The notes below the pieces were generated by a model. That model saw only the letters and a program-made list of their open reading frames with translations. It was not told where the DNA came from and ran no database searches. Both the position numbers and the translations under genes were made by a program. Shown piece by piece: positions 13,156 through 16,398 of a stretch of DNA of 32,000 nucleotides; position 1 is the stretch's first letter; each line of letters starts with the position of its first letter. Source of the stretch: Bacillota bacterium (lineage in GTDB: Bacteria; Bacillota; Desulfotomaculia; Desulfotomaculales; Desulfallaceae); the NCBI GenBank assembly GCA_023439185.1, contig JAEXOR010000011.1:233168-265167 (forward strand), written 5' to 3'.

Positions 13156-13184
13156 TTGACATTTTTCGATTTGACGCTTACAAT
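13156..13184 (+). promoter_or_regulatory. Strong sigma70-type promoter of the ars-hgc operon
   Basis: TTGACA (13156-13161), a 17-nt spacer, then TACAAT (13179-13184), 36 nt upstream of the arsR ATG. It is flanked by the direct repeats TTTTTCGATTTGA (13162-13174) and TTTTTAGATTTGA (13198-13210). Confidence 0.6.
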
Positions 13185-13219
13185 ACTCATATCGAAGTTT
13201 TTAGATTTGAGGTGCCGGA

Positions 13220-13552
13220 ATGGATTATTATTCTGAACATGCGAAAGTGTTCAAGGCGTTGGGCGATCCCAAAAGAGCCATGATTGTGGATATGCTCTCC
13301 TGCGGTGAACTTTGCGCCTGCATGATTTTAGAGAAATTCAAGATGTCCCAATCCACGTTGTCCCACCACATGAAGACCCTGTGCGAATGTGGGCTTGTTA
13401 AAGGCAGAAATGAAGGCAAATGGACTCACTATTCGCTGGATGCGGAAACAATCAGCAAAACAAAGCAGTTTTTGCACACCATTACCACCGACAAGGAAGA
13501 CTGCATCTGCAAGGTAAATGCGGACTGCTGTAAAGGAAGTGAATCAGAATGA
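13220..13552 (+). CDS. arsR: ArsR/SmtB-family metalloregulatory repressor
   Basis: Winged-HTH with the metal(loid)-site motif LSCGELCACMILEKF followed by SQSTLSHHMKTLCECGLV. The C-terminus is Cys-rich (DCICKVNADCCKG). The stop overlaps the hgcA start (ATGA at 13549-13552). Confidence 0.9.
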   Translation: MDYYSEHAKVFKALGDPKRAMIVDMLSCGELCACMILEKFKMSQSTLSHHMKTLCECGLVKGRNEGKWTHYSLDAETISKTKQFLHTITTDKEDCICKVNADCCKGSESE

Positions 13553-14607
13553 GTGAAGAAAAATCCTGCTGTTGTTCGGCTGATACCTGTTGCGCCGTGG
13601 AACCCATTAGGGGAGAAATCCGGGCTTTGCAACACGACGTTACTGCGGTGTCAACGAATATAAATTTTAAGGACACGCTTGGAACCTGGAAAGCACGCTG
13701 GGGCATAGGCAGGATGAATTACAAGATTAATCCCGGGCTTTATGCCGTCGGCAATCCCGATCATACGTCCCCGGTGCTGGTCAGCGCAAACTACAAACTG
13801 ACCTTCGATGCTTTAAGAAAAGAGCTTTCCGGGCTGCATTGCTGGATTCTGATCCTCGATACAAAGGGCATCAACGTCTGGTGCGCCGCCGGCAAAGGCA
13901 CCTTCGGAACTGATGAACTGGTGGGCCGCATATTAAAGACAGGACTGTCCGGGCTTGTATCGCACAGGAAATTGATTTTGCCGCAACTTAGCGCCCCAGG
14001 CGTGAGCGCCCATGAAGTAACCAGGCAAACCGGCTTTGCAGTGGTTTACGGCCCAGTAAGAGCCCGTGATATAAAGGCTTTCCTTGAGTCAGATCTCACG
14101 GCTACAGAAGAAATGCGCTCCGTTAAATTTACATTGCGGGACAGGTTGGTTCTCACGCCTGTGGAACTGGTGCCGGCCGCAAAGGCTTCATTAATGGTTT
14201 TCGGAGTATTGTTCCTCATCAACCTTTTTGCCGCCAGACCTTTCGGGCTCGCGGATTTAATTGTTTATGCGGGCGCCGTGGTAACGGGAACCGTTGTTAC
14301 CCCCGCCCTCCTGCCCTATATTCCCGGCCGGGCCTTCGCCTGGAAGGGCTGGCTGCTGGGACTGTGCTGGACAGCATGGTTTATTTGGTTCAACGGCTGG
14401 TTTGTTTCGGAATTCCTGCTTCTGGCCATAGGCTATTTGCTGGTTCTGCCGTCATTGTCGGCCTTTCTGGCCATGAATTTCACAGGCTCGTCAACGTACA
14501 CTTCCTTTTCCGGTGTGATCAAGGAAATGAAAACAGCGGTGCCGTTGATTGCTCTTTCCTCCGTCGTGGGAATCGTGCTGGTTTTAACGGCAACCCTGTC
14601 GACTTAA
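13549..14607 (+). CDS. hgcA: HgcA, the corrinoid protein of the mercury-methylation pair (N-terminal corrinoid-binding domain plus C-terminal TM domain)
   Basis: Contains the diagnostic cap-helix motif GINVWCAAGKGTFG (family consensus N(V/I)WCA(A/G)GK) in a CFeSP-like domain. About 5 C-terminal TM helices follow (LMVFGVLFLINLF..., LIVYAGAVVTGTVV..., WLLGLCWTAWFIWF..., LLLAIGYLLVLPSL..., LIALSSVVGIVLVL). There is an unusual N-terminal SCCCSADTCC stretch. Confidence 0.9.
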   Translation: MSEEKSCCCSADTCCAVEPIRGEIRALQHDVTAVSTNINFKDTLGTWKARWGIGRMNYKINPGLYAVGNPDHTSPVLVSANYKLTFDALRKELSGLHCWILILDTKGINVWCAAGKGTFGTDELVGRILKTGLSGLVSHRKLILPQLSAPGVSAHEVTRQTGFAVVYGPVRARDIKAFLESDLTATEEMRSVKFTLRDRLVLTPVELVPAAKASLMVFGVLFLINLFAARPFGLADLIVYAGAVVTGTVVTPALLPYIPGRAFAWKGWLLGLCWTAWFIWFNGWFVSEFLLLAIGYLLVLPSLSAFLAMNFTGSSTYTSFSGVIKEMKTAVPLIALSSVVGIVLVLTATLST

Positions 14608-14621
14608 ACAAGGAGGGCATT

Positions 14622-14912
14622 ATGAAACACAGGTATCTGAAAAATGTCGCGACACTTGGTCTGGCGGCTGAAAAATGTGTGGGCTGCGGAAGATGCGTAC
14701 AGGTTTGTCCCCATGGAGTGTTCGGCGTGGAAGATAAACGGGCGCGGATAAAAGACAAAGACAGGTGTATGGAGTGCGGCGCTTGTTTGATAAACTGCCC
14801 CGCCAACGCCATCTCTGTCGATACCGGGGTCGGATGCGCCTCCGCCGTGATCTGGGGCTGGCTTACCGGAAGCGAACCGAGCTGTGATTGTTCAGACAGC
14901 GGATGCTGTTAA
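14622..14912 (+). CDS. hgcB: HgcB, the 2x[4Fe-4S] ferredoxin partner of HgcA
   Basis: The true start is the ATG at 14622 after AAGGAGGG; the 182-aa track ORF is an upstream extension overlapping hgcA. Two CxxCxxCxxxCP motifs (CVGCGRCVQVCP and CMECGACLINCP) include the diagnostic C(M/I)ECGA. It also has the conserved internal GVGCA Cys and the C-terminal vicinal Cys pair (..SGCC*). Confidence 0.9.
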   Translation: MKHRYLKNVATLGLAAEKCVGCGRCVQVCPHGVFGVEDKRARIKDKDRCMECGACLINCPANAISVDTGVGCASAVIWGWLTGSEPSCDCSDSGCC

Positions 14913-14927
14913 AAAGGTGGTGTGTTT

Positions 14928-15989
14928 ATGAGCAAAGTGAAAAATACAGGTATTAGTTTTTTTGAAAAGTACCTGACCCTATGGGTTGCCCTGTGCATGG
15001 TTGCCGGTATTCTGATCGGAAAATTCCTGCCTGCAATTCCTGATTTTTTAGGTAAATTTGAGTATGCGCAAGTGTCCATTCCCATCGCCATTTTAATCTG
15101 GTTAATGATCTATCCCATGATGATGAAGGTGGACTTCGCCAGCATTAAAAACGTGGGTAAAAACCCTGAAGGCTTATATGTTACATGGGTGACCAACTGG
15201 CTAATCAAGCCCTTTACCATGTTCGGCATCGCGTGGCTTTTCTTCCATGTGGTATTCAAGGCGTTTATTCCCGCGGAGCTAGCCAGGGATTATTTAGCCG
15301 GGGCTATTTTACTTGGCGCAGCGCCTTGTACGGCAATGGTGTTTGTATGGAGCCATCTGACCAAGGGAAGGCCCGCTTATACAGTGGTACAGGTTGCCAC
15401 AAACGACCTCATTATTCTCGTAGCCTTTACGCCAATCGTCGCCTTTTTGCTTGGCGTGGGCGGCATATCCATCCCGTGGGATACGCTTATCCTGTCTGTG
15501 GTGCTATTCGTTGTCATACCATTATCAGCCGGTATCGCCACAAGAATCTGGATGATCAAAAACAAAGGTGTGGAATATTTCGAACAGCGGTTTATTCCCA
15601 AGTTTAATAACATTACAATTATAGGCTTGCTGCTCACGTTGATTATCATTTTCTCCTTCCAGGGAGAAGTGATATTGAGCAATCCCCAACATATCCTGTT
15701 GATTGCCATACCGCTGATTCTGCAGACACTCCTGGTCTTTTTCATAGCCTATACCGCCTGCAAACTGCTCAAGCTACCGCATGACATAGCGGCTCCGGCC
15801 GGCATGATTGGCGCGTCCAACTTCTTTGAGCTTGCCGTGGCGGTGGCCATTTCCCTGTTTGGCACGACATCGCCTGTGGCGCTGGCGACCATTGTGGGAG
15901 TGCTTGTCGAGGTGCCTGTTATGTTAACGCTGGTACGTATCGCCAACAATACACGTCATTGGTTCAGGGAGGAAAAACAGCATGGATAA
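14928..15989 (+). CDS. acr3: ACR3-family arsenite efflux permease
   Basis: The N-terminus ISFFEKYLTLWVALCMVAGILIGKF and the LGAAPCTAMVFVW motif (conserved Cys/Pro) are typical of Acr3/ArsB(ACR3), with about 10 TM segments. I prefer the ATG at 14928 (after AAGGTGGTG) over the GTG at 14922. Confidence 0.9.
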   Translation: MSKVKNTGISFFEKYLTLWVALCMVAGILIGKFLPAIPDFLGKFEYAQVSIPIAILIWLMIYPMMMKVDFASIKNVGKNPEGLYVTWVTNWLIKPFTMFGIAWLFFHVVFKAFIPAELARDYLAGAILLGAAPCTAMVFVWSHLTKGRPAYTVVQVATNDLIILVAFTPIVAFLLGVGGISIPWDTLILSVVLFVVIPLSAGIATRIWMIKNKGVEYFEQRFIPKFNNITIIGLLLTLIIIFSFQGEVILSNPQHILLIAIPLILQTLLVFFIAYTACKLLKLPHDIAAPAGMIGASNFFELAVAVAISLFGTTSPVALATIVGVLVEVPVMLTLVRIANNTRHWFREEKQHG

Positions 15990-16398
15990 GCCTAAAGTAG
16001 CTTTCATATGTGTGCATAACTCCTGCCGCAGCCAGATCGCGGAGGCGTTGGGCAAACACCTGGCCGGTGATGTTTTTGCATGCTATTCGGCGGGAACCGA
16101 AACAAAACCGCAAATCAACCAGGACGCCGTCCGGCTAATGAAACAGCTTTACGGGATCGACATGGAGAAAACACAGCATCCGAAACTGCTTTCGGAAATT
16201 CCACCGGTTGATATCGTCGTCACCATGGGCTGCAATGTCACTTGCCCATACCTGCCCTGCAAACATAGGGAAGATTGGGGATTGGGTGATCCCACAGGCA
16301 AAAACGATGAGGACTTTATCGCCGTCATTTGCGAAATTGAGCATCAGATCAAGCTGCTTGCATCGAAGGTTTATCCCATATGCCAGTCAGCAATCTAG
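15982..16398 (+). CDS. arsC: Arsenate reductase, thioredoxin-coupled LMW-PTPase type
   Basis: CX5R P-loop VAFICVHNSCRSQIAEA plus the downstream Cys pair in GCNVTCPYLPC. It overlaps the acr3 stop by 8 nt. Confidence 0.9.
   Translation: MDKPKVAFICVHNSCRSQIAEALGKHLAGDVFACYSAGTETKPQINQDAVRLMKQLYGIDMEKTQHPKLLSEIPPVDIVVTMGCNVTCPYLPCKHREDWGLGDPTGKNDEDFIAVICEIEHQIKLLASKVYPICQSAI

Follow-up and report, generated by a model that had tools for sequence, protein, structure and literature searches.

The mercury-methylation genes hgcAB within a predicted arsenite-responsive ars operon of a Desulfallaceae bacterium

Genes, promoter and proteins of the locus

We analysed a stretch of 32,000 nucleotides (nt) from a Bacillota bacterium of the Desulfallaceae (GenBank assembly GCA_023439185.1, contig JAEXOR010000011.1, positions 233,168 to 265,167), hereafter the window, in which the mercury-methylation genes hgcA and hgcB stand between the regulator gene and the efflux-pump gene of a predicted arsenic-resistance (ars) operon. 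The locus comprises the following features, in window coordinates.

13151-13174, plus strand: putative operator O1, TCATATTGAC-N4-TTCGATTTGA, an imperfect palindrome overlapping the -35 hexamer
13156-13184, plus strand: sigma-70-type promoter TTGACA-17-TACAAT, -35 at 13156-13161 and -10 at 13179-13184
13187-13210, plus strand: putative operator O2, TCATATCGAA-N4-TTAGATTTGA, between the -10 hexamer and the ribosome-binding site (RBS) of arsR
13220-13552, plus strand: arsR, 110 amino acids (aa), ArsR/SmtB repressor of the As(III)-sensor type
13549-14607, plus strand: hgcA, 352 aa, corrinoid protein
14622-14912, plus strand: hgcB, 96 aa, ferredoxin with two [4Fe-4S] clusters
14928-15989, plus strand: acr3, 353 aa counted from ATG, arsenite efflux permease
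15982-16398, plus strand: arsC, 138 aa, predicted arsenate reductase of the low-molecular-weight protein tyrosine phosphatase (LMW-PTP) fold, probably thioredoxin-coupled

A first-pass annotation of this DNA had described five same-strand genes that follow one strong promoter, are joined by tight junctions and contain no internal hairpin, and each of these points was reproduced. The promoter matches at 11 of 12 positions, is the top site in 12400-17000 and keeps both hexamers across relatives. The junctions measure -4, +14, +15 and -8 nt: arsR and hgcA share an ATGA overlap (13549-13552), the gap between hgcA and hgcB holds AAGGAGGG at 14610-14617, the gap between hgcB and acr3 holds only an RBS, and acr3 and arsC overlap at 15982-15989. 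The start of acr3 was placed at ATG 14928 by alignment with relatives; the mechanically called open reading frame begins at GTG 14922. Only four weak terminator-like sites lie on the plus strand, all within coding sequence, and both strands together hold 6, compared with a shuffle expectation of 6.2 +/- 2.6. Folding z-scores ranged from -1.7 to +0.9 for all junctions, the best internal hairpin and the region after arsC. Candidate internal terminators and promoters were rejected, because the scan matches were at chance level and no junction gave a significant fold. No Rfam family matched within the operon, where a cobalamin riboswitch in particular was absent. The genes thus share one strand, leave no intergenic room for a promoter or terminator and keep their order in relatives, as a single operon should, and arsR-hgcA-hgcB-acr3-arsC is predicted to be one co-transcribed unit.

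Two imperfect palindromes of 24 nt, TCATATTGACATTTTTCGATTTGA (O1) and TCATATCGAAGTTTTTAGATTTGA (O2), stand at the promoter. They are direct repeats of each other with 83% identity, O2 starting 36 nt after O1; in addition, the right half of O1 and the left half of O2 are mutually inverted. When the 170 nt upstream of arsR were aligned among 20 related loci, there was no similarity before 13151 and almost complete invariance from there to the start codon, which indicates that the common cassette spans roughly 13150-16365. A degenerate form of the operator motif was found in 28 of 81 sources, always just 5' of arsR, with three weak matches elsewhere in 0.89 Mb. This dual-palindrome layout is classic for a self-repressing regulator that blocks its own promoter, and ArsR would be the expected ligand. 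A 7-nt inverted repeat at 13124/13215 was dismissed as trivial.

The product of arsR matches Pfam HTH_5 (E=2e-14) and NCBIfam HTH_metalloreg (NF033788; 93 bits, cut-off 55). It carries the motif SCGELCAC (Cys28, Cys32 and Cys34; ELCAC at residues 30-34) and a C-terminal DCIC...CC tail, so that Cys95, Cys97, Cys103 and Cys104 in the tail, together with Cys55 and Cys57, are additional cysteines. All 64 relatives keep both Cys32 and Cys34, and ELCAC falls at the exact positions of Cys32/Cys34 of E. coli ArsR, which reportedly suffice for As(III) binding (quoted in the text of Gionfriddo et al., bioRxiv 10.1101/2022.10.17.512643). Among solved structures, CzrA and CadC match best in sequence. The protein is 55-56% identical, over some 90% of its length, to plasmid-encoded regulators that AMRFinder labels 'As(III)-sensing ArsR' and that head arsRDA-acr3-arsC operons in Listeria, Enterococcus and Clostridium.

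HgcA and HgcB were recognised by the first-pass annotation from their diagnostic motifs, all of which we located, and the possibility raised there that the protein falls outside the HgcA clade despite its motif was answered by profile searches. HgcA scored 485 bits with the HgcA_corrinoid equivalog (NF040863, cut-off 275) and stayed below the cut-offs of the paralogue models, namely the HgcAB-like fusion (NF043039; 209 versus 285) and the gamma subunit of the corrinoid iron-sulfur protein (CFeSP; 80 versus 306). Its cap-helix motif NVWCAAGK, with the corrinoid-ligating Cys, lies at residues 109-116. The C-terminal membrane domain is present: the family profile aligns residues 31-349, and a crude Kyte-Doolittle scan, which does not resolve a fifth helix, found four strongly hydrophobic 19-residue segments (210-228, 232-250, 289-307 and 330-348). 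Among solved proteins, HgcA is closest to large subunits of CFeSP, from which the cap-helix Cys is missing; a sequence search found no solved structure for HgcA or for Acr3. HgcB scored 137 bits with the HgcB_ferredoxin equivalog (NF040864, cut-off 99) and has two CX2CX2CX3C motifs (residues 19 and 49), CMECGAC included, and a C-terminal CC at 95-96. Its gene lies directly downstream of hgcA, as membership of the HgcB family requires. Methylation of Hg(II) by this HgcA with HgcB is a predicted capacity.

Acr3 belongs to the TIGR00832 equivalog (391 bits, cut-off 282.8), is 90-91% identical to Acr3 of three related loci (L001, L088 and L136) and contains PCTAM (133) and FFELA (299), motifs that we take to hold its essential Cys and Glu. 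The naming of the last gene as arsC calls for one qualification. Its product matches Pfam LMWPc and has a CX5R loop, CVHNSCR (Cys10-Arg16), and a Cys84/Cys88 pair in GCNVTCP; it misses every NCBIfam ArsC equivalog cut-off (PRK13530, 80 versus 215 bits; TIGR02691, 67 versus 174; TIGR02689, 58 versus 158). Its top 14 PDB matches are nevertheless all arsenate reductases (best 3t38, E=4e-19, aligned motif TMGCGDVCP; also 1ljl/2cd7), and its whole length can be aligned with the annotated ArsC encoded in a plasmid operon of C. tyrobutyricum, arsR-arsD-arsA-acr3-arsC. Only its last ~10 residues diverge from all relatives. The combination points to an arsenate reductase of a sister subfamily rather than a member of the pI258 family, and the protein is probably an arsenate reductase in the broad sense.

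Related loci and the modular history of the operon

A scan of GTDB representative genomes for HgcA yielded at least 559 hgcA loci. The best 80 were annotated by tblastn, and the fractions given for them are not unbiased. The synteny survey proposed in the first-pass annotation found acr3 or arsC within 6 kb of hgcAB in 21 of these 80 loci, in 17 of which they are contiguous with hgcAB on the same strand, and an ArsR-family gene upstream of hgcAB in about half. The five-gene order of the window, with its tight junctions, recurs in four genome loci (L001, L004, L005 and L055) and in three metagenome contigs (L097, L100 and L122). In the four genomes the junctions span -8/-4 nt for arsR and hgcA, 11-14 for hgcA and hgcB, 15-36 for hgcB and acr3, and -8 to +9 for acr3 and arsC, and a strong intrinsic terminator immediately follows arsC in L055.

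Other members of the family show the ars half in various stages of rearrangement or decay. In L014 arsC precedes acr3, and its distance from hgcB is about 170 nt, as it is in L011. L019 has acr3 only; L006 lacks arsC and has an acr3 cut down to 160 codons; the arsC of L007 is truncated and that of L016 frameshifted, and L011 combines a 39-codon acr3 remnant with an intact arsC. L004, which is intact, and L006 have zero synonymous differences in arsR and hgcA, so the decay of the ars half in L006 must be very recent. In seven loci arsR-hgcAB is followed by unrelated genes. A neighbour-joining tree of HgcA places the ars-containing loci as early branches of the clade of the window and the arsR-hgcAB-only loci as a derived subclade, and the evidence suggests that in this Bacillota clade the five-gene form is the ancestral one. 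Different arrangements occur in other clades: arsR-acr3-hgcAB (L046 and L049), arsR-arsC-hgcAB (L029 and L053), arsR-arsC-acr3-hgcAB (L054) and hgcAB-acr3-arsC (L051). Three of the loci named here come from cultured strains: L011 from Acetivibrio mesophilus N2K1, L053 from Desulfosporosinus sp. BG and L054 from Clostridium sp. BSD9I1.

A search with the promoter-operator pattern TTCGATTTG-N6-ANAAT-N4-ATATCGA gave 57 metagenome contigs, mostly from fermentation, bioreactor and sludge assemblies. Wherever there was enough sequence, the same ArsR (72-91% identical) lay directly downstream, except in L102 (acr3 next) and L141 (an HTH/cupin gene next). The following gene was hgcA in 24 contigs, of which 9 go on to acr3 and/or arsC and 8 do not, the other 7 being too short to show it. 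About 18 contigs carry ars genes without hgcAB behind the same promoter, with an ArsR 72-84% identical to that of the window and with the architectures arsR-acr3-arsC and arsR-DUF2703-acr3-arsD-arsA-arsC (arsD and arsA recognised by eye rather than by hidden Markov model). A single promoter-ArsR cassette therefore heads three types of operon: arsR-hgcAB-acr3-arsC, arsR-hgcAB alone and ars genes without hgcAB. In the ArsR tree, operons with and without hgcAB are intermixed. Control of hgcAB by an ArsR-family regulator encoded upstream, with a response to As(III) and As(V), is described for Pseudodesulfovibrio mercurii ND132 in the text of its report (bioRxiv 10.1101/2022.10.17.512643; AEM 2023). 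The intermixed tree and the invariant Cys32/Cys34 indicate that the regulator studied here is an ars-operon ArsR and not a specialised hgcAB paralogue as in ND132.

Two observations on these contigs concern single genes. One hgcAB-free ars operon with the same ArsR and operator (L124), otherwise of the arsR-DUF2703-acr3-arsD-arsA-arsC architecture, contains an open reading frame, at +1986..2618 from the operator, for a 210-aa S-adenosylmethionine (SAM)-dependent methyltransferase with the Cys-rich C-terminal tail CCCDSCESC, which may be a small ArsM-like enzyme. In L122 and L090 arsR is interrupted after about codon 90 by a transposase gene of the IS110 family (Pfam DEDD_Tnp_IS110, Transposase_20), some 320-2290 nt past the operator. 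Such an insertion in an otherwise intact arsR-hgcAB-acr3-arsC operon might be a natural knock-out that derepresses the operon or makes it polar.

The clearest record of past rearrangement is a deletion scar shared by three loci, L088, L136 and L112. In each of them arsR overlaps an ATG by the usual 8 nt, from which 17 codons, MNKENSCGGPVNACNAE, follow that correspond to the HgcA leader of L001, MNKEKSCCSPVNACYAE, and are fused in frame to Acr3 (…GGERNTGIGFFEKYL…). A blastn comparison of L088 with L001 gave two blocks, 81.6% identical over 456 nt and 87.2% over 1,426 nt, between which about 1.39 kb is missing from L088; the lost part takes in almost the whole of hgcA, the entire hgcB and the initial codons of acr3. 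The in-frame hgcA'-acr3 scar indicates that these operons formerly held hgcAB and then lost it. Together with the decaying copies of acr3 and arsC, the scars show the two halves of the operon to be modular and each of them dispensable.

The leader of HgcA has features of its own. In the window it is a Cys-rich stretch of 30 aa (MSEEKSCCCSADTCC, 13549-13640) outside the HgcA profile, which begins at residue 31, and it lacks about 10 residues (TPYDKNDEWVT) that are present in relatives. A similar leader, MSNCCCSSENCC, is found in the DUF2703 gene that directly follows arsR in ars operons with the same promoter (L087 and L124); the HgcA leader may have arisen as a chimeric 5' end when hgcAB was inserted, or by convergence. 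A short repeat at the starts of hgcA and acr3 (MSEEK / MSKVK) was considered as a footprint of insertion and rejected, as only 11 of 18 nt match.

The first-pass proposal that hgcAB is structurally part of the ars transcription unit is thus backed by the recurring five-gene order, the shared promoter-ArsR cassette and the scars.

Proposed regulation and its alternatives

We propose that a canonical Firmicute arsR-acr3-arsC operon acquired hgcAB, which came to lie between its regulator and pump genes. In the resulting operon, ArsR dimers on O1 (over the -35) and O2 (between the -10 and the RBS) would block the promoter, and As(III) or Sb(III) would bind Cys32 and Cys34 of helix alpha-3, plus Cys28, and free ArsR from the operators. 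A single polycistronic mRNA would result, its translation coupled where genes overlap or lie 14-15 nt apart. ArsC would reduce As(V), Acr3 would export As(III), and the membrane corrinoid protein HgcA and the ferredoxin HgcB would be produced simultaneously, so that the capacity to methylate Hg(II) would go up under arsenic stress. We consider it likely that the locus is one ArsR-repressed, arsenite-inducible operon of five genes that arose by entry of hgcAB into an ars operon. The conserved operators, the sensor cysteines, the shared cassette and the scars make co-induction by As(III) the best-supported mechanism, and arsenite co-induction of hgcAB can soundly be inferred from the sensor motif of ArsR and the position of its operators.

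Pairwise NG86 ratios of nonsynonymous to synonymous substitution (dN/dS) were 0.07-0.26 for arsR, hgcA and hgcB, including in the subclade that lacks acr3 and arsC, and purifying selection acts on all three genes. Maintenance of the sensor, the operators and hgcAB where hgcAB is the sole cargo is the strongest in-silico argument that expression of HgcAB under this signal is selected.

Several points weigh against this reading. No terminator was found 3' of arsC in the window by scan or folding. The arsC stop codon (16396-16398) overlaps the stop codon (16395-16397) of a convergent gene for the FAD subunit of a molybdo-flavoenzyme (16395-17381, minus strand), which leaves no space for a terminator after arsC, and read-through would run antisense to that neighbour. 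Furthermore, hgcAB (in L088, L136 and L112) and acr3-arsC (in L006, L007, L011 and L016) have each been lost separately, which suggests that their functions are not obligatorily coupled. The text of the ND132 paper (bioRxiv 10.1101/2022.10.17.512643) reports that no methylated arsenic was detected in that strain, and its summary states that arsenic resistance did not drop significantly without hgcAB; the results section discusses a lower resistance of the hgcAB mutant to As(V), not to As(III). The ND132 regulator is of a different, four-Cys ArsR subtype, so the precedent transfers only loosely.

These findings could also be explained if chance recombination had put hgcAB into an ars operon, where it would hitch-hike on a strongly selected and often transferred resistance operon, incidentally co-regulated with arsenic detoxification, while serving a function unrelated to arsenic, with Hg methylation a side reaction of a C1 or corrinoid role. 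Such an origin would account for the clean loss of hgcAB from the scar loci with retention of their ars genes, and it agrees with the summary results for ND132 given above. It would also fit flanking genes that are common to none of the 80 related loci (none of them has a counterpart of the Usp-like, YeiH-like or flavoprotein genes nearby) and the host labels Acetivibrio, Syntrophomonas, Peptococcaceae, Christensenellaceae and Lachnoclostridium, which occur at similar HgcA identities of 74-81% and suggest horizontal spread. Other observations speak against a passenger. About 25 loci retain arsR-hgcAB, the operators and Cys32/Cys34 with no acr3 or arsC called after hgcB, at least 15 of them on contigs long enough to show the absence; where this is visible, hgcAB is the only cargo of the arsenite-sensor promoter, and dN/dS in those lineages is ~0.1. 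The different hgcAB-ars arrangements of the other clades (L046, L049, L029, L053, L054 and L051) were built independently. Finally, tblastn found no HgcA homologue on any of 72,556 plasmids, and plasmid carriage of hgcA was rejected. We regard a passenger origin as unlikely.

A metal(loid)-related native role, as suggested in the first-pass annotation, is a reasonable hypothesis. Our best guess, held with low confidence, is that HgcAB was selected to handle a thiophilic metal(loid) found together with arsenic, or to transfer methyl groups to it. In a more specific version, HgcAB would be an anaerobic, corrinoid-dependent counterpart of ArsM, induced by arsenite and selected for action on a metalloid substrate (As(III), Sb(III) or a thio-arsenical), and Hg(II) would be methylated in a side reaction; the operon would later have lost its ars or its hgc genes by lineage. 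The analogy is attractive because ars operons do recruit methyltransferases, as in L124. The ND132 results given above, with no methylated arsenic detected and, by the summary, no significant drop in resistance, speak against it, and we think it distinctly improbable.

The nature of the inducer was considered as well. Cysteine-site ArsR/SmtB proteins can bind several soft metals, and ArsR could sense Hg(II), Cd/Zn, S-adenosylhomocysteine (SAH) or thiol stress, in which case the operon would be a broader unit against thiophilic metals or methylation stress. The extra cysteines of the protein and its best solved matches, CzrA and CadC, are in keeping with this, as is the response of ND132 ArsR2 to SAH-raising treatments described in the text of Gionfriddo et al. 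On the other side, the ELCxC of helix alpha-3 is of the As(III) site type, the nearest annotated relatives are the As(III)-sensing ArsRs of arsRDA-acr3-arsC operons, the same ArsR and operator drive pure ars operons, and a protein of 110 aa has no SAM/SAH-binding domain. A different inducer is accordingly very doubtful in our view, and As(III) remains the favoured signal.

That adjacency does not mean co-induction, with arsR-hgcAB forming one unit and acr3-arsC a second one transcribed from its own promoter in the 3' end of hgcB, would suit the variable presence of acr3 and arsC after a constant arsR-hgcAB core and the ~170-nt gaps between hgcB and arsC in L014 and L011, which have room for a promoter, but it is the least probable of these accounts, since in the window the 15-nt gap holds an RBS only, no promoter-like site of at least 9/12 occurs in 14700-14927 (from the interior of hgcB to the acr3 start) and nothing like a terminator lies at the junction, the five-gene loci keep gaps of 15-36 nt, and the scar contigs drive acr3 straight from the arsR promoter via the retained hgcA start codon.

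Surroundings and comparison with known systems

Upstream the operon is bordered by a Usp-like gene and downstream by a convergent cluster of molybdo-flavoenzyme genes. Neither GC content nor skew has a clear boundary across 9-21 kb, and a foreign-island signature was rejected. The remaining features of the window are as follows.

477-644, minus strand: tandem tRNA-Lys(CTT) and tRNA-Gln(CTG) genes, adjoining an ABC transporter cluster (770-4436)
5401-6525 and 10735-12225: two YeiH-like membrane proteins (Pfam Cons_hypoth698)
6705-8144: 479-aa protein with no family match, between the YeiH-like genes
8153-10373: PAS histidine kinase and response regulator, between the YeiH-like genes
16395-20323, minus strand: first molybdo-flavoenzyme set, with FAD, molybdenum cofactor (MoCo) and 2Fe-2S subunits
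20511-22447, minus strand: second molybdo-flavoenzyme set
22487-23284: IclR regulator
23623-24681: EamA transporter
25534-27168: Cas4-Cas1 fusion
27444-27787: CRISPR array of five repeats (Rfam CRISPR-DR63), with a lone repeat at 24958-24994
28079-29728: CARF/Card1-like protein
29786-30673: Cas6
30621-31883: RAMP protein

The two adjacent molybdo-flavoenzyme gene sets (minus strand, within 16395-23284) are of the 4-hydroxybenzoyl-CoA reductase / xanthine dehydrogenase type, and the CRISPR-Cas locus at 24958-31883 looks like type III.

To our knowledge, HgcAB is the only known route to neurotoxic methylmercury. Its physiological function is a long-standing question, for which arsenic is the leading published lead. 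The operon family described here is a cleaner test bed than ND132, having a textbook As(III)-sensor regulator with the ars effectors in the same predicted transcript, and it provides natural controls behind one operator, with hgcAB, with hgcAB precisely deleted and with hgcAB only. If co-induction is true, exposure to arsenic or antimony could raise the methylmercury potential of anaerobic digesters, bioreactors and sediments, the sources of most of the related contigs.

The link between hgcAB and ars genes, and the hypothesis of an arsenic-related function, are already published. Neighbourhoods of hgcAB with acr3, arsC and arsR appear in McDaniel et al. 2020 (PMC7438021, Fig. 6), and the association is repeated in Peterson et al. 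2025 (PMC11984097, Fig. 4c) and Zhang et al. 2023 (PMC10349881); between them, these papers place arsR, acr3, arsC and arsM in the neighbourhood of hgcAB. An arsenic-related native function of HgcAB is hypothesised in the text of Gionfriddo et al. (bioRxiv 10.1101/2022.10.17.512643). As in our locus, acr3 and arsC flank hgcAB in the published neighbourhoods, with an ArsR-family gene upstream, and a link between arsenic detoxification and Hg methylation was proposed there; the difference is that the text of those reports gives co-localisation only. The canonical ArsR subtype, the dual operator shared with hgcAB-free ars operons, the ancestral five-gene form, the modular gain and loss and the deletion scars are not described in the text, as distinct from the figures, of the papers searched, and may be new.

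Arrangement and response are similar in ND132, where, according to the text of its report (bioRxiv 10.1101/2022.10.17.512643), an ArsR-family repressor gene lies directly upstream of hgcAB and is co-transcribed with it, and hgcAB responds to As(III) and As(V). ArsR2 of ND132, however, has a four-Cys site off alpha-3 and no co-localised ars genes, whereas the window has the canonical ELCxC, with acr3 and arsC in the operon.

HgcA residues 59-180 are homologous to the corrinoid-binding domain (Pfam CdhD) of the CFeSP large subunit of the Wood-Ljungdahl pathway, which differs in having Thr/Ala in place of the cap-helix Cys (SVLTAWAAGK) and in lacking a membrane domain. ArsM-type ars operons, of which L124 is the example found, likewise keep a methylating enzyme under ArsR control inside an ars operon; HgcAB differs from ArsM in being a corrinoid protein with a ferredoxin rather than a SAM-dependent enzyme, and we know of no demonstration that it methylates arsenic.

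Firmicute ars operons (arsR-acr3-arsC; the C. tyrobutyricum plasmid; Listeria pLI100) share with the window an ArsR that is 55% identical and has the SCGExCAC and DCIC motifs, the ArsC subfamily with MGCNVxCP, and, on the plasmids, the same promoter layout, with palindromes in two places, between -35 and -10 and between -10 and the RBS. They differ in their half-sites, which are ATAGAT-N4-ATCTAT there and ATCGAA-N4-TTCGAT-like here, and in having no hgcAB.

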